Positions 28,295 to 39,097 of a DNA stretch of 39,097 bases are shown here, piece after piece (positions within the stretch are counted from its first letter, which is position 1; each line of letters begins with the position of its first letter). Made by a program: the position numbers and the translations under genes. The notes beneath the pieces are model-generated. The model did no database searches and was not told the DNA's origin. It worked only from the letters and a program-made list of their open reading frames with translations. The stretch comes from a virus. Taxonomy: Duplodnaviria; Heunggongvirae; Uroviricota; Caudoviricetes. Where the stretch lies: IMG/VR virus record IMGVR_UViG_2609460219_000010, positions 1 to 39,097 of that record, one strand, 5' to 3'.

Positions 28295-29310
28295 AGATCC
28301 ACCCCGTAAATCCAGTCAGTGTTTGTCAGGTCGAGTTTTGGTTTTCCGGCTGTCACGCCAGCCTGTTGCTTGTTACGGTTGATTTCGAGCTGGGTCCACT
28401 TGTCGCGGAGTTTGGCCGGACTCAGCACGTTACCGGACCAGAAGTTGTCCTGGCAGGCCCAGCGGAAAAGCACACACATATCGCGGTGGTTACGTCCGTC
28501 ACGTTCACGCATCAGGCGGATATCGTTAGCCCACCCAGCAAAATTCGGTTTTCTGGCTGATGGCGCGATGGTCTTCACCATGTCAAACATCCACTCTGCG
28601 GCGGTCAGGTCTTCTGCTGTCCCCCACTTGCTGCCGCTCTGAATCGCAGCATCCGCTTTCACCACAGGAAGGTCGTTTTCTGGCAGGTCAGAGGATTCGC
28701 CAGAATTCTCGGACGAATAAGGTTTTATATTGTCTTTTGTTAGTTTGTCTTTTGTGTTTACCTGATTCGGGTAAGTGCCTTTACCTGATTTGGGTAAACT
28801 TTTCTTACCTGATTCAGGTAAATTTANCTCTTTCAGGTAAACTTTATTTTTCTTACCTGATTCGGGTAATGTTGACCATTCACTGACCACATTATTAATG
28901 CCTATATTCCGCCCGCTCTGAATAAAAATCCCACGCTTTACCAGAGCACTTTTTGCAGCAGAACACTTGTGCGGCAATATCCCGGTTAATTCGGAAAGTT
29001 GCTCGTTGCTAACCCAATCCAGTTTTTTATTAAAGCCATATGTTTTGCGCATGACAGCCAGAAAGACCAGAAGCTGGTGCTGTGTTAATCCGGCCAGCAT
29101 CACAGCTTCCAGCAACTCATTTGCAATGCGCGTATAACCATCATCGAGATCTGCCACGCGCGGCTCCTTTTGTGCCGCATCCGGCACTGGAAAATTGAAT
29201 ATCTCAGCAGTGTTTGCCATAATTCCTCCCGCAATGAGTGTGTTACGATTTGCACCTGAAAGTCGGTTCTGTTCCCGCAGACCGACTTTCGCCATTTTTG
29301 AACCTGTCAT
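28291..29310 (-). CDS. O: replication initiator O-like protein (hybrid: non-lambda N-terminal domain, lambda-type C-terminal domain)
   Basis: C-terminus ...RWACQDNFWSGNVLSPAKLRDKWTQLEINRNKQQAGVTA.KPKLDLTNTDWIYGVDL recalled as lambda O C-terminus; N-terminal half differs; iterons inside the gene. Confidence 0.8.
   Translation of the reverse strand: MTGSKMAKVGLREQNRLSGANRNTLIAGGIMANTAEIFNFPVPDAAQKEPRVADLDDGYTRIANELLEAVMLAGLTQHQLLVFLAVMRKTYGFNKKLDWVSNEQLSELTGILPHKCSAAKSALVKRGIFIQSGRNIGINNVVSEWSTLPESGKKNKVYLKEXNLPESGKKSLPKSGKGTYPNQVNTKDKLTKDNIKPYSSENSGESSDLPENDLPVVKADAAIQSGSKWGTAEDLTAAEWMFDMVKTIAPSARKPNFAGWANDIRLMRERDGRNHRDMCVLFRWACQDNFWSGNVLSPAKLRDKWTQLEINRNKQQAGVTAGKPKLDLTNTDWIYGVDL
28758..28869. 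repeat. origin iterons (four to five 17-bp repeats TTACCTGATTCGGGTAA) inside O
   Basis: Copies at 28758-28774, 28781-28797, 28805-28821, 28853-28869 plus a degenerate copy around an N near 28827; each internally palindromic; AT-rich tract adjacent. Confidence 0.7.
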
Positions 29311-29852
29311 ATTGCCCCCAGCATGGTGGTGACCATCGCCATCAATGGACCAGCCAGATCTGGGTCCACTCGAAACATCGACACAATGCCTTCACTCATC
29401 TCCTTCAGTTTCTGGTGGCGTGGTGCGTTGAGAATGACCGCCTGCTTTGCCTCACTGAGTTCCTTTTCCATTTCAGCCAGCCGAGCCATGAAGCTATCCT
29501 GCTCAACCAGGTGGCCGCGATATTCCAGCGGTAGTACCGCCAGAATTGCCGGGGTCAGTTCACGCACGTTATTTCGGTATTTTTCAGAATCGAATTTGTT
29601 ATCGAGGAAGCGGAACAGCTTCTGGCGTGCACGACTGACATCATCAGGAAAATCGATGGTGCCGCCGCCCTGTGCTCGATACTCATTCACAATGAGTGCG
29701 GCAACTACATCCTGATTATCTTCAGCAGACCAGGCGCGGACGGCATCACGAATTTTTTCGTGGCCTGGCACCTGTTTTATTTGAGAACGATTTATCACCG
29801 CAGTCGGGCTAAATCCGCTAGTCTGTTGGTATGTAAGTGGTTGCATAATCAT
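29307..29852 (-). CDS. putative CII-like regulator (cII slot)
   Basis: 181 aa ORF between cro and O; assignment positional. Confidence 0.45.
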   Translation of the reverse strand: MIMQPLTYQQTSGFSPTAVINRSQIKQVPGHEKIRDAVRAWSAEDNQDVVAALIVNEYRAQGGGTIDFPDDVSRARQKLFRFLDNKFDSEKYRNNVRELTPAILAVLPLEYRGHLVEQDSFMARLAEMEKELSEAKQAVILNAPRHQKLKEMSEGIVSMFRVDPDLAGPLMAMVTTMLGAI

Positions 29853-29876
29853 CGCCTTATCAGTTAACGCCGCAGA

Positions 29877-30110
29877 TTAGGCGGCAGAATTACTCGCGTT
29901 AAACAATGGTGCGAGGTCGGGACGAATATCTGCTGGCTTAATCTTTCCACCAGTGGCTGAGACAATTTTCATTACATAGCGGGCATCAATTCCGCCACCG
30001 TGTAGCCAACGCCAAACAGTGGGCTGGGCTACACCGCATAGATCTGCCAGTCGTTTTTGACTACCTGTAATACTGATTGCGAGTTGAATGGTTTGATTTG
30101 TCATTATCAA
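29877..30110 (-). CDS. cro: Cro-like repressor (HTH)
   Basis: 77 aa, HTH-like segment SQKRLADLCGVAQPTVWRW; divergent from cI across a 100-bp operator region. Confidence 0.65.
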   Translation of the reverse strand: MIMTNQTIQLAISITGSQKRLADLCGVAQPTVWRWLHGGGIDARYVMKIVSATGGKIKPADIRPDLAPLFNASNSAA

Positions 30111-30136
30111 TTCCTATTGGTATTACAATGAATGGA

Positions 30137-30165
30137 ATAATAGCAATGCGTATTAACCATGGCAA
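30137..30165 (-). promoter_or_regulatory. candidate PR promoter
   Basis: Minus strand -35 TTGCCA, 17-bp spacer, -10 TATTAT, about 27 nt upstream of cro ATG. Confidence 0.4.
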
Positions 30166-30170
30166 TAGCA
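30138..30170. promoter_or_regulatory. candidate OR operator repeats (AATAGCAAT core)
   Basis: Two copies of the AATAGCAAT/CAATAGCA motif overlapping the PR -10 and -35; same motif recurs at candidate OL. Confidence 0.4.
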
Positions 30171-30179
30171 AAACGTGTT

Positions 30180-30207
30180 TTGACCATCAATACGCAAGCG
30201 TATAAAT
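30180..30207 (+). promoter_or_regulatory. candidate PRM promoter (leaderless cI transcript)
   Basis: TTGACC, 15-16 bp spacer, TATAAA/ATAAAT ending about 9 nt before cI ATG at 30216. Confidence 0.35.
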
Positions 30208-30215
30208 TAAAACTT

Positions 30216-30908
30216 ATGAAAAAAGAAACTCTTGCTGATCGCTTAAACCTAGCGATGGAACAATCTGGGATGTCTCAAGGCGCTCTTGCAAAGGCGTCTG
30301 GCGTAGCTCAACCCACAATCTGGAGACTGACAAGCGGCAACGCGCGCGGCTCAACAAAAATTGTTGAAATAGCTAATGCATTGGGTGTTCGAACAGAGTG
30401 GCTCTCATCAGGCATAGGCCCGATGAGAAATGACGGTCAACAATCAGGGAAGCCTACTGTCAACCATTCCAAATACTTCAAGATTGACGTTCTTGATATA
30501 GAAGTGAGTGCCGGGCCGGGAGTCATCAACCGTGAGTTTGTAGAAGTCCTACGCTCGGTTGAGTACTCGTTTGACGATGCTCGTCACATGTTCGATGGCA
30601 GGAAGGCGGAAAATATCCGCATCATTAACGTACGTGGTGACAGCATGTCAGGAACAATCGAACCAGGTGATCTGCTGTTCGTTGATATCACGGTTAAATC
30701 TTTCGACGGTGATGGCATCTATGCGTTTCTGTACGACGACACAGCCCATGTAAAGCGCCTGCAAATGATGAAGGATAAGCTGTTGGTTATCTCTGATAAC
30801 AAGAGCTACTCACCGTGGGANCCGATCGAGAAAGACGAGATGAACCGGGTGTTCATCTTCGGTAAAGTTATTGGGAGCATGCCCCAGACGTACAGGAAAC
30901 ATGGATAA
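30216..30908 (+). CDS. cI: CI-type repressor (HTH + S24 LexA-like autopeptidase)
   Basis: N-terminal HTH (QGALAKASGVAQPTIWRL); C-terminal Ser-Lys dyad motifs GDSM and VKRL; not lambda cI. Start taken at internal Met 30216. Confidence 0.75.
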   Translation: MKKETLADRLNLAMEQSGMSQGALAKASGVAQPTIWRLTSGNARGSTKIVEIANALGVRTEWLSSGIGPMRNDGQQSGKPTVNHSKYFKIDVLDIEVSAGPGVINREFVEVLRSVEYSFDDARHMFDGRKAENIRIINVRGDSMSGTIEPGDLLFVDITVKSFDGDGIYAFLYDDTAHVKRLQMMKDKLLVISDNKSYSPWXPIEKDEMNRVFIFGKVIGSMPQTYRKHG

Positions 30909-30974
30909 TCAGTACTGTGCTGATGAGTCGTTTAGGGGATAGTAAATTTAATTAGAATTAGACGAGAGCGATTT

Positions 30975-31839
30975 ATGGATTGTGACGCTTTACAGGATAT
31001 AAAAATCTCTCTTAGGTATGACGGAAAAGATGCTTTAAATCATGAAATAGATTTGAACTGCCTAGGAGAATCCCTAAAGGGTTTTTCTAAAGTTCTCTCA
31101 ACAGCAGCTTCTTTCTCTGTTACACAAAAATATAGTAAATACATTAATTATCAGGAAGTTAAGGTTTACGCACGCGAAGCAAAAGCTAACTGCTTTACTC
31201 TTGAAGCAGTTCTTAACTTCGCCACTCAGAACCAGTTGTTCTCGGGGATCGCCGCAACTATACTTGGCGCAATACTACAATATATTTTTGCGAGAAATTC
31301 TAACAAGAAAGATGAAATGAAAGCTTTGCAGCAGTCACTTGAAAAGGCCATAGAGGCACTAGGAAACAAGGATGCTGGAACCATTGATAAGTTGATCTCT
31401 TTGATTGACCGAATGGCTGTAGAGCTTCGCCCCTCTGTAAGGCAGGCAGTATCACCTATTGGTAATACTTGCGATCAGATAAGTGTTGCAACAAATGTTG
31501 ACGGCTGCCTTCTAAAAGTTAACGAGAGAGATAAAGCTGAAATTGATAGGCTTGATGATGATGAAGTTCTCGGTCTTCGTGAGTATCGTGCTTTTCTTAC
31601 AGAATTTGATGCACAAAATATGACAGCTAAAATAATTTTAGATGGTGATGACTCNAAAAAAGAGAATCACTGCTGAAATTAGCGATCCAGCTGCAGGAAA
31701 GAAGAATAACCCGTATATTAGAGCTCTTAGTGCATATATATCAACCAAAGGTGATCCATCTGCAGTATTCACTATAACCGCAAAGGCTACTGTTAAAAAA
31801 GGCCAGATAAACAGGTTATTTATTGTAGATGCGAAATGA
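30975..31839 (+). CDS. hypothetical protein in rex position (candidate superinfection-exclusion/defence), frame-disrupted at an A-run
   Basis: AT-rich ORF directly after cI on same strand; predicted single TM segment ([19 protein letters not shown]); frames 30975..31676 and 31642..31839 join if the N at 31655 before AAAAAA is dropped; own terminator follows. Confidence 0.5.
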
Positions 31840-31843
31840 TTTC

Positions 31844-31870
31844 CCCGGCCGTCGTGCCGGGTTTTCTTTT
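31844..31870 (+). terminator. intrinsic terminator after rex-position ORF
   Basis: CCCGGC-CGTCGT-GCCGGG hairpin followed by TTTTCTTTT. Confidence 0.5.
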
Positions 31871-31996
31871 GCCTCCCCTCATCACACACCGTTCAAAAAA
31901 CCACCACAACCCCCGCTTCAGTTATCGCTATGCGATGCAAGTCACAAAATTAATTCCTTTTGCTATCAAACAGTTAATATCAAAATACATCAATCA

Positions 31997-32038
31997 ATAG
32001 CAATAAGTATTGATATCACCAATAGCAATAGCTATTAT
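31997..32038 (+). promoter_or_regulatory. candidate PL promoter with OL operator palindrome
   Basis: TTGATA (32010-32015), 17-bp spacer, TATTAT (32033-32038); palindrome AATAGC-AATA-GCTATT (32020-32035) and second CAATAGCAATA copy upstream. Confidence 0.4.
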
Positions 32039-32111
32039 CACCATGTCGCAACAACACAACGATACGGCAACCACCTGTTTCACCGTTGCGATGACCGCTT
32101 AGATCCGCAGT

Positions 32112-32522
32112 TTGAATTTCAGCAGGCTTCGGGGAGTGCGAGGGGTGAAACGGACGCGTGAACGTCGGTGTGACCAGCTGAAATCAACACAACACTTTAT
32201 ACCTCAGTCGCTTCAACGAGGCGGCTTAGTTATGACAACCGGCGGCCATCCACCGCCTGAATACGCGCAGAAGTCTCTATATGTTCAGCAGCCCAGCTTA
32301 CGGGCAGGAGTTTTTATGGTTCATCAACATTACGGAACGCAGACCGTTAATCGCGGCGCGGTCATGCCAGGAATGCTGGTCAAACACAAAGATGGTACCT
32401 GGACTGCATCAGCTAATTTACGCGGGCGGCTTTATCTGCATCGCGGCATCGAGCGCACTTATACCCGTGATTTGCTCGTAGAAGTTTTTCTCGACGGACG
32501 CGGTAACGGCCTGAATCACTAA
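32112..32522 (+). CDS. hypothetical protein in the N/kil slot (Arg-rich N-terminus if long start is used)
   Basis: 136 aa ORF (alternative start 32232) between candidate PL and gam; N-terminal RLRGVRGVKRTRERR. Confidence 0.35.
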   Translation: MNFSRLRGVRGVKRTRERRCDQLKSTQHFIPQSLQRGGLVMTTGGHPPPEYAQKSLYVQQPSLRAGVFMVHQHYGTQTVNRGAVMPGMLVKHKDGTWTASANLRGRLYLHRGIERTYTRDLLVEVFLDGRGNGLNH

Positions 32523-32598
32523 CCCCCCTTTCCTGTTTTCCTAATCAGCCTGGCATTTCGCGGGCGATATTTTCACAGCCATTTTCAGGAGTTCAGNC

Positions 32599-32895
32599 AT
32601 GAACGCTTATTACATTCAGGATCGTCTTGAGGCTCAGAGCTGGGCGCGTCACTACCAGCAGATCGCCCGTGAAGAGAAAGAGGCAGAACTGGCAGACGAC
32701 ATGGAAAAAGGCCTGCCCCAGCACCTGTTTGAATCGCTATGCATCGATCATTTGCAACGCCACGGGGCCAGCAAAAAAGCTATTACCCGTGCGTTTGATG
32801 ACGATGTTGAGTTTCAGGAGCGCATGGCAGAACACATCCGGTACATGGTTGAAACCATTGCTCACCATCAGGTTGATATTGATTCAGAGGTATAA
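32599..32895 (+). CDS. gam: Gam (RecBCD inhibitor)
   Basis: 98 aa, matches recollection of lambda Gam short form; upstream in-frame sequence resembles long-form N-terminus. Confidence 0.9.
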
Positions 32896-32900
32896 AACGG

Positions 32901-33686
32901 ATGAGTACAGCACTCGCAACGCTGGCAGGGAAGCTGGCTGAACGTGTCGGCATGGATTCTGTCGACCCAGAGGAACTGATCACCACTCTTCGCCAGACGG
33001 CATTTAAAGGTGATGCCAGCGATGCGCAGTTCATCGCATTGTTGATCGTCGCCAACCAGTACGGCCTTAATCCGTGGACGAAAGAAATTTACGCCTTCCC
33101 TGATAAGCAGAACGGCATTGTTCCGGTGGTGGGCGTTGATGGCTGGTCCCGCATCATCAATGAAAACCAGCAGTTTGATGGCATGGACTTTGAGCAGGAC
33201 AATGAATCCTGCACATGCCGGATTTACCGCAAGGACCGTAATCATCCGATCTGCGTTACCGAATGGATGGATGAATGCCGCCGCGAACCATTCAAAACTC
33301 GCGAAGGCAGAGAAATCACGGGGCCGTGGCAGTCGCATCCCAAACGGATGTTACGTCATAAAGCCATGATTCAGTGTGCCCGTCTGGCCTTCGGATTTGC
33401 TGGTATCTATGACAAGGATGAAGCCGAGCGCATTGTCGAAAATACCGCATACACTGCAGAACGTCAGCCGGAACGCGACATCACTCCGGTTAACGATGAA
33501 ACCATGCAGGAGATTAACACTCTGCTGATTGCCCTGGACAAAACATGGGATGACGACTTATTGCCGCTCTGTTCCCAGATATTTCGCCGCGACATTCGCG
33601 CATCGTCAGAACTGACACAGGCCGAAGCAGTGAAAGCTCTTGGATTCCTGAAACAGAAAGCCTCTGAGCAGAAGGTGGCTGCATGA
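32901..33686 (+). CDS. bet: Bet single-strand annealing recombinase
   Basis: 261 aa, near-identical to my recollection of lambda Bet. Confidence 0.95.
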
Positions 33687-34363
33687 CACCGGACATTATC
33701 CTGCAGCGTACCGGGATCGACGTGAGAGCTGTCGAACAGGGGGATGATGCGTGGCACAAATTACGGCTCGGCGTCATCACCGCTTCAGAAGTTCACAACG
33801 TGATAGCAAAGCCCCGCTCAGGAAAGAAGTGGCCTGACATGAAAATGTCCTACTTCCACACCCTGCTGGCTGAGGTTTGCACCGGTGTGGCTCCGGAAGT
33901 TAATGCTAAGGCGCTGGCCTGGGGAAAACAGTACGAGAACGACGCCAGAACCCTGTTTGAATTCACTTCCGGCGTGAATGTTACTGAATCCCCGATCATC
34001 TATCGCGACGAAAGTATGCGCACAGCCTGCTCTCCCGATGGTTTATGCAGTGACTGCAATGGCCTTGAGCTGAAATGCCCGTTTACCTCCAGGGATTTCA
34101 TGAAGTTCCGGCTCGGTGGTTTCGAGGCCATAAAGTCGGCTTACATGGCCCAGGTGCAGTACAGCATGTGGGTGACGCGAAAAGATGCCTGGTACTTTGC
34201 CAACTATGACCCGCGCATGAAGCGTGAAGGCCTGCATTATGTCGTGATTGAGCGGGATGAAAATTACATGGCGAGTTTTGACGAGATGGTGCCGGAGTTC
34301 ATCGAAAAAATGGACGAGGCACTGGCTGAAATTGGTTTTGTATTTGGGGAGCAATGGCGATGA
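33683..34363 (+). CDS. exo: Exo 5'-3' exonuclease
   Basis: 226 aa, near-identical to my recollection of lambda Exo. Confidence 0.95.
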
Positions 34364-34707
34364 CGCATCCTCACGATAATATCCGGGTAGGCGCGATCAC
34401 TTTCGTCTACTCCGTTACAAAGCGAGGCTGGGTATTTCCCGGCCTTTCTGTTATCAGAAATCCACTGAAAGCACAGCGGCTGGCTGAGGAGATAAATAAT
34501 AAACNGGGGGGCTGTATGCACAAAGCATCTCCTGTTGAGTTAAGAACGAGTATCGAGATGGCACATAGCCTCGCTCAAATTGGAGTCAGGTTTGTGCCAA
34601 TACCAGCAGAAACAGACGAAGAATTTCATACGTTAGCCACATCCCTTTCACAAAAGCTGGAAATGATGGTGGCGAAAGCAGAAGCAGATGAGAGAGACCA
34701 GGTATGA
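34354..34707 (+). CDS. small b-region ORFs (lambda orf61/orf63-like), fused in this reading frame across an N
   Basis: C-terminal 63 residues [21 protein letters not shown]... form an independent unit; an N at 34505 before a G-run affects whether the upstream ORF terminates in another frame. Confidence 0.5.
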
Positions 34708-34783
34708 CAACCACTGAATGCATTTTTCTGGCAGCGGGCTTCATATTCTGTGTGCTTATGCTTGCCGACATGGGGCTTGTTTA

Positions 34784-34999
34784 ATGACACCTCAGCAAGA
34801 AAACGCCCTTCGCAGCATTGCCCGTCAGGCTAATTCTGAAATCAAAAAAGCCAGACAGCAGTTTCCGGATAAAAACGTCGATGACATTTGCCGTAGCGTA
34901 CTGAAGAAGCACCGCGAAACGGTAACGCTGATGGGATTCACACCGACTCATTTAAGCCTGGCGATCGGCATGTTAAACGGCGTTTTTAAGGAACGGTGA
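34784..34999 (+). CDS. small b-region protein (lambda orf60a-like)
   Basis: MTPQQENALRSIARQANSEIKKARQQF... ; start taken at internal Met (ORF track 34718). Confidence 0.5.
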   Translation: MTPQQENALRSIARQANSEIKKARQQFPDKNVDDICRSVLKKHRETVTLMGFTPTHLSLAIGMLNGVFKER

Positions 35000-35098
35000 A
35001 CATGAAAAGCAAAATTATCAGGGAGCTACAGGCTCCTTTTTTTATTATTCGCATTTACCCTCAAGCGTATTAACCAACAATTCAGGGATTAATGAAAG

Positions 35099-35320
35099 AT
35101 GGCAGACATCATTGATTCAGCATCAGAAATCGAAGAATTACAGCGCAATACAGCAATAAAAATGCGTCGTCTGAACCACCAGGCTATATCTGCCACTCAT
35201 TGTTGTGAGTGTGGCGATCCCATAGATGAACGAAGACGCCTGGTCGTTCAGGGTTGTCGGACTTGTGCAAGTTGCCAGGAAGATCTGGAGCTTATCAGTA
35301 AACAGAGAGGTTCGAAGTGA
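35099..35320 (+). CDS. TraR/DksA-family C4 zinc-finger protein (lambda orf73-like)
   Basis: 73 aa with CCECG...CRTCASC four-Cys zinc-finger spacing typical of TraR/DksA C-terminal domains. Confidence 0.7.
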   Translation: MADIIDSASEIEELQRNTAIKMRRLNHQAISATHCCECGDPIDERRRLVVQGCRTCASCQEDLELISKQRGSK

Positions 35321-35568
35321 GCGTAATTCACTCTCAGGCACTGCGTGAAGCGGCAGAGCAGGCAATGCATGACAACTGGGGATTTGACGCGGACCTTTTC
35401 CATGAGCTGGTAACACCATCGATTGTGCTGACACTGCTGGATGAACGGGAAAGAAACCAGCAATACATCAAACGCCGCGACCAGGAGAACGAGGATATTG
35501 CGCTAACGGTGGGGAAACTGCGTGTTGAGCTGGAGACAGCAAAAATCAAAACTCAACGAGCAGCGTGA
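35317..35568 (+). CDS. hypothetical protein (b-region)
   Basis: 83 aa ORF, start overlaps upstream stop. Confidence 0.4.
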   Translation: MSVIHSQALREAAEQAMHDNWGFDADLFHELVTPSIVLTLLDERERNQQYIKRRDQENEDIALTVGKLRVELETAKIKTQRAA

Positions 35569-35866
35569 GTAGAAGGTGTTATCTCGGATGGAAGTAAGCG
35601 TATTGCTGAACTGGAGGCCTGGGTTGAATACACAAGAGCTGCATACGTAAGAGCAAAAGACAAGGGAGATTTGATCAGAGTTATTACCAGCCAACCAACG
35701 GGATTTTACGCTTACGTACCATGTAATTAGGAATCCTTGAAGTGGCAGCCTAACTGCGGATACACTGAAATGGCGATTTGGTAACATGTTTCGCACAAGG
35801 GTGTTACTACGCTTAGAGATAATCAGCCATGATTAAACGCTTTGTAAAAAGTAAAAGGAAATTACA

Positions 35867-36481
35867 ATGAAAAAATCAATACTAATTTTAGGGCTTACGT
35901 TAATTGTCTCATCTCAAATACCATCGGCAATGGCNAAAAATGAATCAAAACTATGGGTTGTTGTTGATCGAACGGAAAGACATACCTGCCCTTCAAGTAA
36001 ATGTGGAGTGGCTGGGAAACTATTTTTCAGGGAAGGCGTAGATTTTCTAGAAAAAAAAGGTGAATGGGTTCGTATAACTGAGCCATATTCAGCCTCATGT
36101 GTTGGAGGGGAAAGCGAATATATTAAAGAAGGTAATAAATCCTGCACAAGAAAAAATGGAATCGTTAATGGCAAGTTTTCAGAATGGGTTAAACTTAGTG
36201 ATCTTAGCAGTGAAAGGCCATCAGATCCTGCTGAAAATGCGAGCGGAGATGATACTTTAATCAAAGGATCTGATGACTACCGTATATACAAAAAAGAGTT
36301 TTCTTCGGCAGCTAGGAAGTTAATAAATGAAGGGGTCTGCACGGAAAGCGATTTTAAGGAAATCGGAGGGTGGATGGCATCAAGCAATAAGGGTGAAAAC
36401 ATCTATTTCACATATTGCGGAGGAATGACGTTGTCGAACAGAATATACCTAGATGTTAAAAGTGGAAAGACTTTTAGATAA
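35867..36481 (+). CDS. secreted Cys-containing protein, AT-rich moron
   Basis: N-terminal signal peptide MKKSILILGLTLIVSSQIPSAM; AT-rich; AAGGAA RBS; strong terminator downstream. Confidence 0.55.
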   Translation: MKKSILILGLTLIVSSQIPSAMXKNESKLWVVVDRTERHTCPSSKCGVAGKLFFREGVDFLEKKGEWVRITEPYSASCVGGESEYIKEGNKSCTRKNGIVNGKFSEWVKLSDLSSERPSDPAENASGDDTLIKGSDDYRIYKKEFSSAARKLINEGVCTESDFKEIGGWMASSNKGENIYFTYCGGMTLSNRIYLDVKSGKTFR

Positions 36482-36551
36482 TATGATATTACCAATGACA
36501 GTATTGATTTAATGCCTCCATAGAATTATCTCTAGGAAGTAGGTATAAGAA

Positions 36552-36589
36552 AAGCCCGCACAATGAGCTGCTGCGGGCTTTGTGTTATT
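36552..36589 (+). terminator. intrinsic terminator after secreted-protein gene
   Basis: Perfect 9-bp stem AAGCCCGCA/TGCGGGCTT with 11-nt loop, followed by TGTGTTATT. Confidence 0.5.
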
Positions 36590-37108
36590 CGCCATATTTT
36601 ATGAAGCAAATACGACACTATAGATAATTAAGCGTTGCTGGTTGTCGATTCCTCAATCACTCCTGTGGATGACTCTCTTCTTGTATGTGCCATTGAAGGG
36701 GAATATCGCGTAAAAAGATACCGGAAGTATCCGCGCCGCCATTATTGTCTTTCTCCTGATGCAGGAAAAGCAGAATGATCCTACCCACGTAATATGGACA
36801 CAGGCCTAAGCGAGGTTCTGGTTTTCAAATTGTTCCGGACTGAGGCCGCCACACCAACTGTGCCACGCGTCGCTTCAGGCGTGCGCCTTGCGAGTTTGGT
36901 GAGTACATCGCGTTACTGAGCCGCCAGGATGATGCACGTGTGCGCTGGCGTATAAAATCGATCAGCAGAAAACGTTGCGGTAAGTGCGGCGAGAGAGTTC
37001 CTGTTAATTCATGCCCGTGTAATGGTGACTCACAATGCTGGGTGACCAAAGGCTGGCACGAAACAAAATTAATGATATAAATCTCTGTGACATGTCACGG
37101 AGGCGGCA

Positions 37109-37537
37109 ATGAAATTAGACCAGCAATATCTAAAAGATCTACTTATCGCATTCGAAAAAACTCGTGGCCCTGACACGATGCTTAGTGAACTAGAGGATAA
37201 TGGCTTTAATAGATATGACCAAGATTTTATTTTCCATATGCGATTATTATGTGACTACGAATTAATAGTCAGGGTTGATGGAAAACCTGGATTCGGTCAT
37301 ATAATGTCCAAAGCGTTAGGGGAAGGTGTTGGATATAGTTGGATCGAAGTACCACTGAGGTTGACAGCAAGAGGGCATGATTTTATTGCTGACTTACGTC
37401 AAAAGGATGTCTGGCAAGCTATAAAAACAAACTTTAAGGATGAGGGAATTAGTACACTTATGAGTGTTTCAAAATCACTAGCAAAAGGCTTTGCAAGGAA
37501 AAAGATAAAAGATATTACAGGAATAGATATTGAATAA
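37109..37537 (+). CDS. hypothetical protein, AT-rich moron upstream of xis
   Basis: 142 aa, strongly AT-rich, GGAGG RBS, own hairpin terminator. Confidence 0.55.
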   Translation: MKLDQQYLKDLLIAFEKTRGPDTMLSELEDNGFNRYDQDFIFHMRLLCDYELIVRVDGKPGFGHIMSKALGEGVGYSWIEVPLRLTARGHDFIADLRQKDVWQAIKTNFKDEGISTLMSVSKSLAKGFARKKIKDITGIDIE

Positions 37538-37582
37538 TTCTTAGCATCAAGCAACTACTGCCTTTGGTGGAAATTATATCTG

Positions 37583-37608
37583 AACTCGCTACGGCGAGTT
37601 TTGTTTTA
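37583..37608 (+). terminator. intrinsic terminator
   Basis: AACTCGC-TACG-GCGAGTT hairpin followed by TTGTTTTA. Confidence 0.45.
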
Positions 37609-37620
37609 TGGAGATGATAA

Positions 37621-37788
37621 ATGCACTTCCGAGTCACAGGTGAATGGAATGGAGAGCCATTCAACAGGGTTATCGAAGCAGAGAACATCAACGACTGCTA
37701 TAACCACTGGATGATATGGGCGCAGATAGCGCATGCAGACGTAACCAATATTCGAATTGAAGAACTGAAAGAACACCAAGCCGCCTGA
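37621..37788 (+). CDS. small ORF upstream of xis (55 aa)
   Basis: Below ORF-track cutoff; GGAG RBS; stop lies inside the next terminator hairpin. Confidence 0.35.
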   Translation: MHFRVTGEWNGEPFNRVIEAENINDCYNHWMIWAQIAHADVTNIRIEELKEHQAA

Positions 37789-37800
37789 TGGCGGTTTTTT
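37780..37800 (+). terminator. intrinsic terminator upstream of xis
   Basis: CCGCC-TGAT-GGCGG hairpin followed by T6. Confidence 0.45.
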
Positions 37801-37827
37801 CTTGCGTGTAATTGCGGAGACTTTGCG

Positions 37828-38046
37828 ATGTACTTGACACTTCAGGAGTGGAACGCACGCCAGCGACGCCCAAGAAGCCTTGAAACAGTTCGTCGATGGG
37901 TTCGCGAATGCAGGATATTCCCACCTCCGGTTAAGGATGGAAGAGAGTATCTGTTCCACGAATCAGCGGTAAAGGTTGACTTAAATCGACCAGTAACAGG
38001 TAGCCTTTTGAAGAGGATCAGAAATGGGAAGAAGGCGAAGTCATGA
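37828..38046 (+). CDS. xis: excisionase Xis
   Basis: 72 aa, matches recollection of lambda Xis essentially throughout. Confidence 0.9.
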   Translation: MYLTLQEWNARQRRPRSLETVRRWVRECRIFPPPVKDGREYLFHESAVKVDLNRPVTGSLLKRIRNGKKAKS

Positions 38047-39097
38047 GCGCCGGGATTTACCCCCTAACCTTTATATAAGAAACAATGGATATTACTGCTA
38101 CAGGGACCCAAGGACGGGTAAAGAGTTTGGATTAGGCCGAGACAGGAGGATAGCAATCACTGAAGCAATACAGGCCAATATTGAGTTACTCTCAGACAGC
38201 GGACGCAAATCACTGATAGACAGAATTAAAGGCGGTGACGCAATCACTCTTCATGTGTGGCTTGACCGATATGAAAGAATCCTCACCGAAAGGGGGATCA
38301 GGCCGAAAACTCTACTCGACTACGCCAGCAAAATCANGGCAATCCGAAGAAAATTGCCGGACAAACCGCTCACTGACATATCAACGAAAGAAGTGGCAGC
38401 AATGCTAAACACCTACGTAGCAGAAGGTAAAGCAGCTTCCGCAAAATTAATCAGGTCAACCCTTGTTGACGTTTTTCGTGAAGCAATAGCCGAGGGGCAT
38501 GTGGCAACGAATCCGGTAACAGCAACCCGTACAGCAAAGTCAGAAGTAAGGCGCTCAAGGCTGACAGCTAATGAGTATGTCGAGATTTACCATGCAGCCG
38601 AACCTCTCCCTATCTGGCTAAGGCTGGCGATGGATTTGGCCGTCGTTACAGGGCAGAGAGTCGGCGATTTGTGCAGAATGAAATGGTCAGACATAAACGA
38701 CAACCATCTTCACATTGAACAGAGTAAAACAGGGGCTAAACTCGCCATTCCGCTAACGCTAACGATTGACGCGCTCAATATCTCATTGGCTGATACACTA
38801 CAGAAATGCAGGGAGGCCAGCAGCAGTGAAACTATAATCGCATCAAAGCATCACGATCCTCTTTCCCCGAAAACAGTATCAAAGTATTTTACAAAGGCGA
38901 GAAATGCATCTGGACTCTCATTTGATGGAAACCCGCCAACATTCCATGAACTGCGTAGCCTGTCAGCGAGGCTATACCGGAACCAGATTGGCGATAAATT
39001 TGCTCAACGTCTTCTCGGGCATAAATCAGATTCAATGGCGGCGCGGTATAGGGACAGCCGTGGACGGGAATGGGACAAAATTGAAATCGACAAATGA
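38024..39097 (+). CDS. int: tyrosine integrase (lambda Int family)
   Basis: N-terminal ~55 aa and C-terminal catalytic segment (..HELRSLSARLY.., ..GREWDKIEI) match lambda Int; central core-binding region diverged; overlaps xis as in lambda. Confidence 0.95.
   Translation: MGRRRSHERRDLPPNLYIRNNGYYCYRDPRTGKEFGLGRDRRIAITEAIQANIELLSDSGRKSLIDRIKGGDAITLHVWLDRYERILTERGIRPKTLLDYASKIXAIRRKLPDKPLTDISTKEVAAMLNTYVAEGKAASAKLIRSTLVDVFREAIAEGHVATNPVTATRTAKSEVRRSRLTANEYVEIYHAAEPLPIWLRLAMDLAVVTGQRVGDLCRMKWSDINDNHLHIEQSKTGAKLAIPLTLTIDALNISLADTLQKCREASSSETIIASKHHDPLSPKTVSKYFTKARNASGLSFDGNPPTFHELRSLSARLYRNQIGDKFAQRLLGHKSDSMAARYRDSRGREWDKIEIDK

Follow-up and report, generated by a model that had tools for sequence, protein, structure and literature searches.

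A predicted 18-bp operator shared by candidate promoters PR and PL in the immunity region of a lambda-like E. coli prophage, very probably of ST104/BTP1 specificity

The window considered in this study (the whole stretch of 39,097 nucleotides, IMG/VR record IMGVR_UViG_2609460219_000010) carries a repressor gene and a cro-type gene that diverge from an intergenic region of 111 bp. Beyond the repressor gene lie a cargo gene, in the position known as the rex slot, and a hairpin:

29877..30104, minus strand: gene for a Cro-type protein of 75 aa with a YdaS-family helix-turn-helix; first in the transcript from PR
30216..30908, plus strand: cI repressor gene (230 aa; N-terminal helix-turn-helix, predicted C-terminal S24 self-cleaving domain)
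30975..31839, plus strand: rex-slot cargo gene (Pfam DUF7946, 2.2e-55, and DUF7947, 3.7e-13)
31844..31871, plus strand: hairpin resembling an intrinsic terminator (CCCGGC-CGTCGT-GCCGGG, then TTTTCTTTTG), at the end of the cI-cargo operon

The product of the cro-type gene matches the Pfam family YdaS_toxin (9.6e-15), with weak matches to P22_Cro and HTH_3. PGAP calls the same coding sequence, and the protein is 69% identical to Cro of phage BTP1. The repressor had been described, in a first-pass annotation made from the sequence, as something other than lambda cI, and so it is: the two are 24% identical, with an E-value of 0.017. Its Pfam matches (Peptidase_S24, 1.8e-18; HTH_3, 1.8e-6) give it the helix-turn-helix and the predicted self-cleavage domain that would be expected of a lambdoid repressor, and Ala99-Gly100, Ser143, and Lys180 align with Ala111-Gly112, Ser149, and Lys192 of lambda, i.e., with the cleavage site and the catalytic pair. 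The solved structure closest to the N-terminal domain is that of the 434 repressor (E about 2e-5). CI is 85% identical to the CI of BTP1, and the helix-turn-helix (residues 18-57) is the same in both. The recognition helix, AQPTIWRL, is invariant in 24 members of the CI family; one variant helix, AQPSIWKL, was encountered, and the operators in that case differ slightly. The N-terminal domain of CI and Cro share the recognition helix GVAQPT(I/V)WR.

The cargo gene, present as a single coding sequence of 288 aa in E. coli genomes, is probably cotranscribed with cI. In phage 4A7 the stretch from 30908 to 31844 is occupied by other genes, with homology resuming exactly at 31844; the rex-slot gene is a swappable cassette.

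The region between cro and cI holds two candidate promoters and four sites of operator type:

30108..30125, minus strand: ORx, a candidate weak operator-like site (TAATACCAATAGGAATTG) in the PR leader, overlapping the cro Shine-Dalgarno sequence
30137..30165, minus strand: candidate PR, with -35 TTGCCA (30165-30160), a 17-nt spacer, and a TG-extended -10 TATTAT (30142-30137)
30138..30155, plus strand: OR1, predicted operator (TAATAGCAATGCGTATTA; repeat family D1), over the PR -10
30163..30180, plus strand: OR2, predicted operator (CAATAGCAAAACGTGTTT), spanning the PR -35, with the PRM -35 directly adjoining
30180..30208, plus strand: candidate PRM, with TTGACC, a 17-nt spacer, and TAAATT (30203-30208)
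30188..30205, plus strand: OR3, candidate operator (CAATACGCAAGCGTATAA), overlapping the PRM spacer and -10

The first-pass annotation had pointed to TTGCCA-17-TATTAT on the minus strand, overlapped by two repeats, as PR. These elements are present, the repeats being an exact copy of AATAGCAAT at 30139-30147 and a copy with one mismatch, AATAGCAAA, at 30164-30172. The candidate promoter matches 10 of the 12 hexamer positions in addition to the TG, and its predicted start lies near 30130. The 5' ends of OR2 and OR1 supply the TTG of the PR -35 and the PR -10, respectively, and both are kept in all relatives.

A second set of elements lies past the cargo gene:

31951..31968, minus strand: OLx, an operator-like or accessory element (TGATAGCAAAAGGAATTA), upstream of OL and following an A-rich tract
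31975..31992, plus strand: OL3, candidate operator (TAATATCAAAATACATCA), degenerate here, with 9 of 18 consensus positions
31995..32012, plus strand: OL2, predicted operator (CAATAGCAATAAGTATTG), over the PL -35
32010..32038, plus strand: candidate PL, with TTGATA (32010-32015), a 17-nt spacer, and TATTAT (32033-32038)
32020..32037, plus strand: OL1, predicted operator (CAATAGCAATAGCTATTA), over the PL -10

Here too the elements that had been noted earlier were found: the candidate PL (10 of 12 positions; predicted start near 32045), the palindrome AATAGC-AATA-GCTATT that overlaps it, at 32021-32036, and a further copy of the motif, CAATAGCAATA, at 31995-32005. OL1 is the most symmetric of the sites, with 14 of 18 positions self-complementary, and it is matched by the scoring matrix described below on the minus strand as well. 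OL2 begins 25 bp before OL1, and OL3 begins 20 bp before OL2.

The recurring AATAGCAAT is a half-site of an 18-bp palindromic operator, with the consensus CAATAGCAA|TTGCTATTG, and the full palindrome of which it forms one half is CAATAGCAATTGCTATTG. Four strong copies of the operator, starting at 30138, 30163, 31995, and 32020, are arranged in two pairs with 25 bp from start to start within each, and each pair spans the -10 and -35 elements of a promoter: PR on the minus strand, PL on the plus strand. A search for the motif across the prophage had been suggested as a check. In the 39-kb window, AATAGCAAT occurs three times where 0.44 occurrences are expected, a count reached in none of 100 shuffles, so the motif is beyond chance. 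A search of the window for repeats returned a single family of four 17-nt copies, whose start-to-start spacings are 25, 1832, and 25. When a scoring matrix was trained solely on OR1 and OR2 of homologous prophages from other genera, the four copies in the window took ranks 1 to 4 among 78,160 positions, with scores of 21-26 bits (OR1, the top match of the window, 26.1; OR2, rank 2, 25.3; OL2, rank 3, 25.0; OL1, rank 4, 21.0). The best score per shuffled window (n=50) had a mean of 13 and a maximum of 20.1. Matches to promoter hexamers alone are not significant (6 in the region against 4.7 +/- 2.3 expected from shuffles), and the two top matches (10/12) are those that overlap operators. It is thus confirmed that a shared operator motif, far beyond chance, lies at these coordinates.

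The same sites stand out when homologous loci are compared. Footprinting in about 30 loci, from Salmonella, Klebsiella, Kluyvera, Citrobacter, Enterobacter, Proteus, Providencia, Morganella, and Serratia, shows OR1, OR2, and OR3 to be conserved and the 7-nt spacers between them variable. Among homologous sites, the information per column is 1.82 bits for OR1 (computed over 27 distinct sequences) and 1.55 bits for OR2, as against about 0.6 for spacers and flanks. The distance from the start of OR1 to that of OR2 is exactly 25 bp in every locus examined. OR1 and OR3 of BTP1 each differ from those of the window at 2 of 18 positions, and OR2 is identical; OR1 of phage Fraca, TAATAGCAATTGCTATTG, fits the consensus at 17 of 18. 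Perfect palindromes occur in relatives: TAATAGCAATTGCTATTA, at the position of OL3 in loci of the Enterobacter group, and CAATAGCATATGCTATTG, in a Pantoea locus. Paired distal sites beside a PL-like promoter, 0.9-3 kb beyond cI, were found in 29 of the 33 loci scanned. Footprinting and motif statistics together bear out the earlier proposal that one operator motif is common to OR/PR and the distal OL/PL.

OR has three sites at steps of 25 bp and a weaker fourth; OL has two strong sites and at most two weak ones. OR3 has the internal dyad ATACGC-AA-GCGTAT. Its start follows that of OR2 by 25 bp, or by 24 bp in some distant loci, and its sequence is kept nearly base for base in relatives. The OR1/OR2 matrix gives it a low score and does not detect it. 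The overlapping PRM -10 may account for part of its conservation. Besides OR3, weaker operator-like sites lie at 30108-30125, 31951-31968, and 31975-31992. ORx, the first of these, scores 15.9 bits (rank 6 of 78,160). Close relatives have a counterpart at 28-30 bp from OR1 that ranks between 4 and 17 when their loci of about 6 kb are scored; in distant relatives it is weak. A fixed offset of 30 bp between ORx and OR1 was considered and rejected on account of that variation, and phased cooperativity with OR1 is therefore not claimed. The AGGAAT half of ORx may perhaps be conserved merely as a ribosome-binding site. OLx, with 15.2 bits (rank 7 of 78,160), resembles ORx (repeat D9), and a pattern search found the block containing it, AAATTCCTTTAGCTATCA, in 22 of 23 related loci, with nearly the same reading. 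It overlaps a match to the IHF consensus, the core of which, WATCA[A/G]NNNNTTR, is present in 16 of the 23 loci. An IHF site is suggestive but no firmer than that, since the core partly coincides with operator half-sites. Both ORx and OLx are weak, and neither need be an operator.

The first-pass annotation had paired a plus-strand TTGACC (30180-30185) with TATAAA (30201-30206) and had regarded the start of cI as leaderless-like. Both hexamers are present, the second 9 nt before the ATG at 30216, but they are only 15 nt apart; the partner of TTGACC at 17 nt is TAAATT, more likely the PRM -10. The promoter so composed matches 9 of 12 positions, and its predicted start is the A of the cI ATG. 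In 32 of 33 loci, exactly 7 nt separate the -10 from this ATG, the sequence of the 7-nt linker is unconstrained and contains no Shine-Dalgarno sequence, the start codon is ATG in all loci compared, and the variants of the -10 found in relatives, TAGATT and TAAGTT, retain the final T. The fixed spacing upholds the leaderless-type start as a candidate, and cI probably begins at the first base of its own mRNA. If TATAAA were the -10 after all, the architecture would be the same, but the cI mRNA would have a leader of 2-4 nt and would not be strictly leaderless. That is improbable. TATAAA is indeed closer to TATAAT at positions 1-5, and it stands 9 nt before the ATG; it is also kept, within TATAAATT, in 30 of 33 loci. 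Its spacer is the shorter one, however, and the variants TATAGATT and TATAAGTT retain the last-position T in the register of TAAATT, not in that of TATAAA. Moreover, the PRM promoters of lambda and of CP-933P both start at the A of the AUG (PMC8630535). It is scarcely credible that cI begins instead at the in-frame ATG at 30159, with 19 additional residues and a conventional leadered mRNA. The longest cI reading frame does run from 30159 to 30908, and the GenBank record of BTP1 starts c1 at an upstream TTG. Against this, the ATG at 30159 sits in the spacer between OR1 and OR2, and it was rejected as the start because phage 4A7, 97% identical, has no such ATG; the linker of one relative is shorter by 1 nt, disrupting the frame upstream of cI; and OR2, OR3, and the PRM hexamers would have to double as coding sequence for the extension. 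The start called by PGAP is 30216, and the reading frame from that ATG was verified.

From the observed sites, with their statistics and conservation, and from the geometry of the promoters and the homologies of the proteins, a mechanism can be proposed in which binding, cooperativity, activation, looping, the order of occupancy, and SOS induction are modelled by analogy on lambda, 434, and CP-933P. CI dimers would recognise the 18-bp two-fold operator through the helix AQPTIWRL. Since the strong sites cover the -10 and -35 of both PR and PL, CI bound to OR1/OR2 and OL1/OL2 would shut off both early operons. At OR2, which abuts the PRM -35, CI would probably stimulate its own transcription: about 44 bp separate the centre of OR2 from the cI ATG downstream, so that, with the start at 30216, this centre stands near -44, as against -42 in lambda, and the geometry of activation would be similar but not the same. 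OR3, over the PRM -10, would allow cI to be turned down at high levels of CI, or by binding of the YdaS-family Cro. Transcripts from PRM would begin with the A of the cI AUG, give or take about one base, and would thus be leaderless; they would also carry the cargo gene and end at the hairpin at 31844. Finally, RecA-stimulated self-cleavage of CI at Ala99-Gly100 would induce the prophage.

That CI or Cro binds the candidate operators is supported indirectly by the joint conservation of recognition helix and half-site. Operators common to CI and Cro are the norm in lambdoid phages, so binding by Cro belongs to the main model and is not a rival to it. A different matter is whether the main ligand of these sites could be Cro alone or the YdaT-like protein encoded in the cII slot, and not CI. 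The recognition helix of Cro is nearly the same as that of CI, and related switches have YdaT proteins that bind inverted repeats (PMC9986795). But the sites co-occur with the invariant CI helix even where the gene in the cII slot differs (annotated as CII-family, 282 nt in BTP1 and 222 nt in a Klebsiella phage, compared with a YdaT-type gene of about 540 nt in the window), and the only characterised YdaT site, TTGATTN6AATCAA, is different and sits at the cro/ydaT junction (PMC9986795), all of which makes another main ligand very improbable. Perhaps, then, the motif is no operator, merely an accident of AT-rich promoter DNA conserved only for the sake of the promoters? The sites do overlap -10 and -35 hexamers, in an AT-rich region where promoter-like matches are common. 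Yet conservation extends to all 18 positions of the operator, also where these fall outside the hexamers; two oppositely oriented promoters 1.8 kb apart carry the same 18-mer, with identical spacings of 25 bp; relatives have perfect dyads; and no shuffle reached the observed motif scores. This reading is strongly disfavoured and has next to no likelihood.

Heteroimmune phages (Turner, IdasGreatGrand, and others) are homologous to the window from 32046 on, and the immunity module therefore ends at the predicted start of PL. A put RNA of the HK022/HK639 type in the PL leader was considered and, as far as the sequence can tell, rejected: the z-score of the fold is +0.63, the leader has no similarity to HK639 putL-like or M3-like RNAs, and an Rfam scan of 29000-33000 (E<=1) found no structured RNA. 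No N gene was seen downstream of PL.

The general plan is that of lambda: the order and orientation of the genes, a tripartite OR between divergent cI and cro, an OL about 2 kb away past a cargo slot, operators over the -10 and -35 of PR and PL, an OR2 that abuts the PRM -35, a cI start of (here candidate) leaderless type, and a repressor with a (here predicted) self-cleaving S24 domain. The spacing of the sites belongs to the likeness as well, with 25/25 at OR and 25/20 at OL here and 24/23 and 24/20 annotated in lambda. The particulars differ: the lambda operator is of the 17-bp TATCACCGCCAGTGGTA type, that of the window 18 bp, CAATAGCAATTGCTATTG; and the window, unlike lambda, has an all-helical Cro of the YdaS/P22-Cro type, a YdaT-like gene in the cII slot, and the extra operator-like ORx and OLx. 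The repressor and the Cro of 434 have very similar recognition helices and use the same operators, and the likeness of the two helices in the window suggests the same for it, but the 434 helix is QQSIEQL (here QPTIWRL), and the 434 operator is only 14 bp long, ACAA-N6-TTGT. The cryptic prophage CP-933P (PaaR2/YdaS/YdaT) and Rac (RacR/YdaS/YdaT) also combine a Cro of the YdaS family with a cII-slot protein of the YdaT family (in the window, YdaT_toxin at 8.4e-30). The divergent intergenic region of CP-933P (97 bp, compared with 111 bp) is likewise packed with 18-bp palindromes, and a PL-like promoter with similar operators lies past its cargo slot; there, the operators are 18-bp palindromes and PRM was found to be leaderless by 5' RACE (Jurenas et al. 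2021, PMC8630535). However, PaaR2 and RacR are short repressors without the S24 domain that CI of the window possesses, the operators of CP-933P are four equally spaced palindromes with the half-site GTTTAGTAA (the window has CAATAGCAA), and its cargo is a toxin-antitoxin pair.

The closest likeness is to BTP1/ST104 (also ST160 and SE1). Apart from the CI and Cro similarities given above, these phages have in common with the window the sequence and spacing of OR1-OR3 and paired OL sites upstream of PL. BTP1 also carries an accessory or defence gene, bstA, in the rex slot, transcribed from the cI promoter; in lysogens, cI and bstA are expressed at a high level as one operon, from a single transcript start (PMC7067206). 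There are differences too: BTP1/ST104 are P22-like podoviruses of Salmonella, whereas the window is from a prophage of E. coli that is lambda-like; the cII of BTP1 is of the CII family and is accompanied by an N gene, where the window has a YdaT-family gene in the cII slot; and the cargo is BstA in the one and a DUF7946/DUF7947 protein in the other.

With divergent repressor and cro genes, a short control region, and one operator at OR and OL over PR and PL, the region is very probably a lysis/lysogeny (immunity) switch, belonging to a lambdoid prophage whose operator specificity is that of ST104/BTP1. Assignment to that specificity draws on the sameness of the repressor's predicted DNA-binding domain and of the predicted operators; by the rule of thumb that 92% identity of CI indicates the same specificity (PMC2629481), the 85% shared with BTP1 falls short. 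Lambda immunity was not found, as blastn of 29000-33000 against lambda 35300-38400 gave no match. The earlier suggestion of a distinct specificity embedded among lambda-identical modules is supported, with refinements: the specificity is not lambda's, but neither is it peculiar to this prophage, and the flanks are lambda-like but not identical, with about 97% identity and only from 32516 rightwards. The ST104 specificity has been listed as distinct and experimentally unstudied (Villafane et al. 2008, PMC2629481), and a literature search found no published operator or operator map for the ST104/BTP1 immunity type. The region is well formed but unremarkable for its type, which is very common and little studied, and it adds nothing conceptually new to the lambda paradigm.

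The type, in its operator and recognition helix, is conserved across many enterobacterial genera and includes the epidemic-associated Salmonella phage BTP1, for whose unusually high spontaneous induction the 18-bp operator and promoter layout may offer a hypothesis. The operator map might also serve to predict homoimmunity between prophages of different hosts, and the repressor/operator pair is a potential orthogonal genetic part. A bolder reading, that there are four operator-type sites per side (three in lambda) and that a single immunity group spans the Enterobacterales, is tentative and on balance unlikely. Were it true, ORx, lying on the ribosome-binding site of cro, could block cro as a roadblock or at the level of translation, and ORx and OLx (the latter upstream of OL3, by the IHF-like core) could be extra anchors for a loop between OL and OR, a regulatory layer that lambda lacks. 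A helix and operator unchanged from Escherichia to Proteus, Providencia, and Morganella would also run against the usual rapid diversification of immunity specificities.

The ST104/BTP1-type specificity was found over that range of genera, and the immunity core (cro, OR, and the N-terminal domain of CI) is present at an identity of at least 95% in 718 of 5,426 complete E. coli genomes (13%). Several database records, that of BTP1 c1 among them, begin the repressor gene within its own predicted promoter.

Judged from its sequence, the region follows the canonical plan of a lambdoid switch and belongs to the ST104/BTP1 immunity type, which is widespread. The first-pass annotation had proposed a switch built on an operator motif shared by candidate PR and PL, with a leaderless cI start, and the computational evidence supports that interpretation with refinements. 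The map direction of the window is the reverse of the conventional lambda map, and PGAP, on an E. coli chromosome 99.9% identical to it, gives the same cro and cI coding sequences with the same cI start.

Features of the switch region (OR1-OR3 and OL1-OL3, predicted operator sites at PR and PL; ORx and OLx, weaker operator-like candidates; PRM, cI promoter)
29877-30104, minus: cro-type gene, 75 aa (YdaS-family, 9.6e-15; P22_Cro match weak)
30108-30125: ORx, candidate (matrix score 15.9 bits, rank 6; control-region match)
30165-30137, minus: PR candidate, TTGCCA-17-TATTAT plus an upstream TG; -10 in OR1, -35 in OR2
30180-30185 and 30203-30208, plus: PRM candidate, TTGACC and TAAATT, 17 nt apart
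30188-30205: OR3, CAATACGCAAGCGTATAA, starting 25 bp after OR2 and overlapping the -10 of the plus-strand promoter facing cI
30216-30908, plus: repressor gene cI, 230 aa (HTH_3 and Peptidase_S24 domains)
30975-31839: cargo gene (DUF7946 and DUF7947), downstream of cI
31844-31861: terminator-like hairpin, after the cargo gene and before the second control region
31951-31968: OLx, candidate (matrix score 15.2 bits, rank 7; control-region match)
32010-32038, plus: PL candidate, TTGATA-17-TATTAT; -35 in OL2, -10 in OL1
32020-32037 and 31995-32012: OL1, CAATAGCAATAGCTATTA, self-complementary at 14 of 18 positions, and OL2, CAATAGCAATAAGTATTG, an 18-bp imperfect palindrome
32317-32522: kil-like ORF, past the second control region and followed by gam, bet and exo

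Every hexamer and motif copy listed at first pass was found in the window. The sequence AATAGCAAT occurs three times in the 39 kb, against 0.44 expected, each time within one of the two control regions, and a repeat search returned a single family of four 17-nt copies (30138, 30163, 31995 and 32020; start-to-start spacings 25, 1832 and 25). The repeat units are imperfect palindromes of 18 bp, with the consensus CAATAGCAA followed by TTGCTATTG, so the motif originally noted is one half-site. In phage Fraca, 17 of the 18 positions of OR1, TAATAGCAATTGCTATTG, agree with this consensus; other relatives carry perfect dyads of this type. Operators are spaced 25/25 at OR and, if the degenerate OL3 candidate (31975-31992) is included, 25/20 at OL, compared with 24/23 and 24/20 in the annotation of the lambda record.

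Coliphages 4A7, 4C10, D2, 1W, 3W, Perceval and PhiR30_1 have the same cI, at 97% identity, and cI N-terminal domains 50-87% identical are found in the Salmonella P22-like phages BTP1, ST104, ST160 and SE1, in Klebsiella phages and in others; one-per-species genomes across Enterobacterales provided a further 39 loci. When the 120 nt upstream of cI in homologous loci are aligned, OR1, OR2 and OR3 are almost base-for-base constant from Escherichia to Proteus, Providencia, Morganella and Serratia, and the 7-nt spacers and outer flanks vary freely. Among 27 distinct sequences, the columns of OR1 average 1.82 bits of information and those of OR2 1.55, compared with 0.59-0.67 in spacers and flanks. 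A weight matrix trained only on OR1 and OR2 of other loci, excluding the window and 4A7, places the window's four sites at ranks 1-4 among 78,160 positions, with scores of 21-26 bits; in 50 shuffled windows the top score averaged 13.0 and reached at most 20.1. Paired or tripled sites lie beside a PL-like promoter 0.9-3 kb past cI in 29 of the 33 loci scanned. Of the 25 family members sampled, 24 have an unchanged recognition helix, AQPTIWRL; the operators of the single variant, AQPSIWKL, differ slightly.

An operator-like 18-mer, AAATAGCTAATGCATTGG (12/18), also lies inside cI (30367-30384), at the codons for EIANALG. It recurs in all relatives, a conservation most simply seen as a coding-sequence effect.

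ORx and OLx resemble each other in the repeat search. ORx overlaps the cro Shine-Dalgarno within the PR leader, and its counterparts in relatives, 28-30 bp from OR1, score modestly. OLx belongs to a block, AAATTCCTTTAGCTATCA, preceded by an A-tract; a pattern search places this block in 22 of the 23 related loci, nearly unchanged, and in 16 of the 23 the OLx/OL3 junction fits the IHF core consensus (scanned as WATCA[A/G]NNNNTTR). The window's match, TATCAAACAGTTA to WATCAANNNNTTR (31963-31975), has an A-rich tract about 8 nt upstream. At about 75 bp before the predicted start of PL, it recalls the IHF site upstream of PL in lambda. It may nonetheless be coincidental, because it is made partly of operator half-sites.

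The repressor was said not to be lambda cI, and indeed the two share just 24% identity. Its identity to BTP1 CI is 85%, with residues 18-57 (the helix-turn-helix) unchanged, and its nearest solved N-terminal domain is that of the 434 repressor. The Ala-Gly cleavage site and Ser/Lys pair align with those of lambda, so RecA-dependent induction would be expected, by analogy with the S24/LexA family. Cro is 69% identical to BTP1 Cro. It shares 40% identity, and the stretch GVAQPT(I/V)WR, with the N-terminal domain of its own phage's cI, which would fit CI and Cro reading the same operators, as in 434.

For the cI promoter, the proposed TTGACC stands, but its proposed partner TATAAA, 15 nt away, probably gives way to TAAATT at 17. 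Across 33 loci this -10 reads TAAATT, TAGATT or TAAGTT, and the start codon, always ATG, follows after 7 nt in 32 of them; in the remaining one the gap is 6 nt. The linker bases are unconstrained (e.g., AAAACTT, GAATATT, CGCATTC, TCAGGGC), and no Shine-Dalgarno precedes the ATG. This geometry fits the proposed leaderless-type start. It is shared with PRM of lambda and with PRM of CP-933P, where leaderless expression was demonstrated by 5' RACE and protein sequencing (PMC8630535). An upstream in-frame ATG (30159) was rejected as the cI start, since it is missing in 4A7, a close coliphage relative. In the homologous BTP1 prophage, cI and downstream bstA are reported to make up an operon that has a single transcript start and is highly expressed in lysogens (PMC7067206). 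The GenBank/RefSeq c1 of BTP1 (L002 2465-3190) begins 36 nt before the conserved ATG, at the TTG that is the -35 hexamer in the predicted PRM; this start is probably mis-annotated, since a ribosome-binding site is missing.

Villafane et al. 2008 (PMC2629481) give the repressor of ST104 a specificity type of its own, listed as unstudied, and BTP1 papers treat CI(BTP1) as the prophage repressor (PMC7067206); literature searches found no published operator of the window's sequence type. At ≥95% identity, the immunity core (29877-30480; cro, OR and the N-terminal domain of cI) occurs in 718 of 5,426 complete E. coli genomes. Almost all of these have a single copy, and the type is thus one of the more common prophage immunity types of E. 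coli.

The surrounding modules had been called lambda-identical. They are lambda-like, but the lambda alignment covers only 32516 to 35615, at 97%. Heteroimmune phages (Turner, IdasGreatGrand and others) align from 32046, directly past the PL -10. Homology with 4A7 runs to the cI stop (30907) and returns at the terminator hairpin (31844), so the gene in the rex slot, between cI and OL, is a cleanly swapped cassette. In BTP1 this slot is occupied by BstA and in lambda by RexAB, so the DUF7946/DUF7947 gene of the window is a candidate prophage defence gene; it weakly matches the PADLOC defence candidate PDC-S42 (E 1e-4). In the window the gene appears as two overlapping ORFs (DUF7946, 30975-31676; DUF7947, 31642-31839). 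The split is probably a sequence artefact, since 99.9%-identical E. coli genomes have a single 288-aa CDS and the window has one additional ambiguous base in an A-run (N at 31655). Further N bases at 30821 (cI codon 202) and 32598 (just 5' of the gam start), together with this one, point to a source sequence of draft quality.

The cII slot (29307-29852, minus) encodes a 181-aa YdaT-family protein (Pfam 8.4e-30), the end of its gene overlapping the start of an O-like replication gene. The arrangement is the same in HK639, where a 546-nt 'CII-like' gene comes after a 228-nt cro. Reading by eye only, no TTGATTN6AATCAA-type site was seen at the cro/ydaT junction.

In the interval from PL to the kil-like ORF (32046-32316), no gene for an N-like antiterminator and no nut or put element is recognisable. 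This leader has no Rfam match and no similarity to the HK639 putL-like RNA, and its fold z-score is +0.63. Upstream of kil the frame stays open; it encodes GVKRTRERR, a stretch rich in Arg, and has no start codon that convinces. In Enterobacter-group relatives (L011, L013-L017, L019, L022) the PL leader, CATCGAAACGAAACATCGACAGCTGAGCGAAGT, is close to an HK639 sequence (L047 6100-6140) just downstream of pL and ahead of the annotated putL-like RNA. Prophages of the Enterobacter group may therefore combine this immunity module with RNA-based antitermination.
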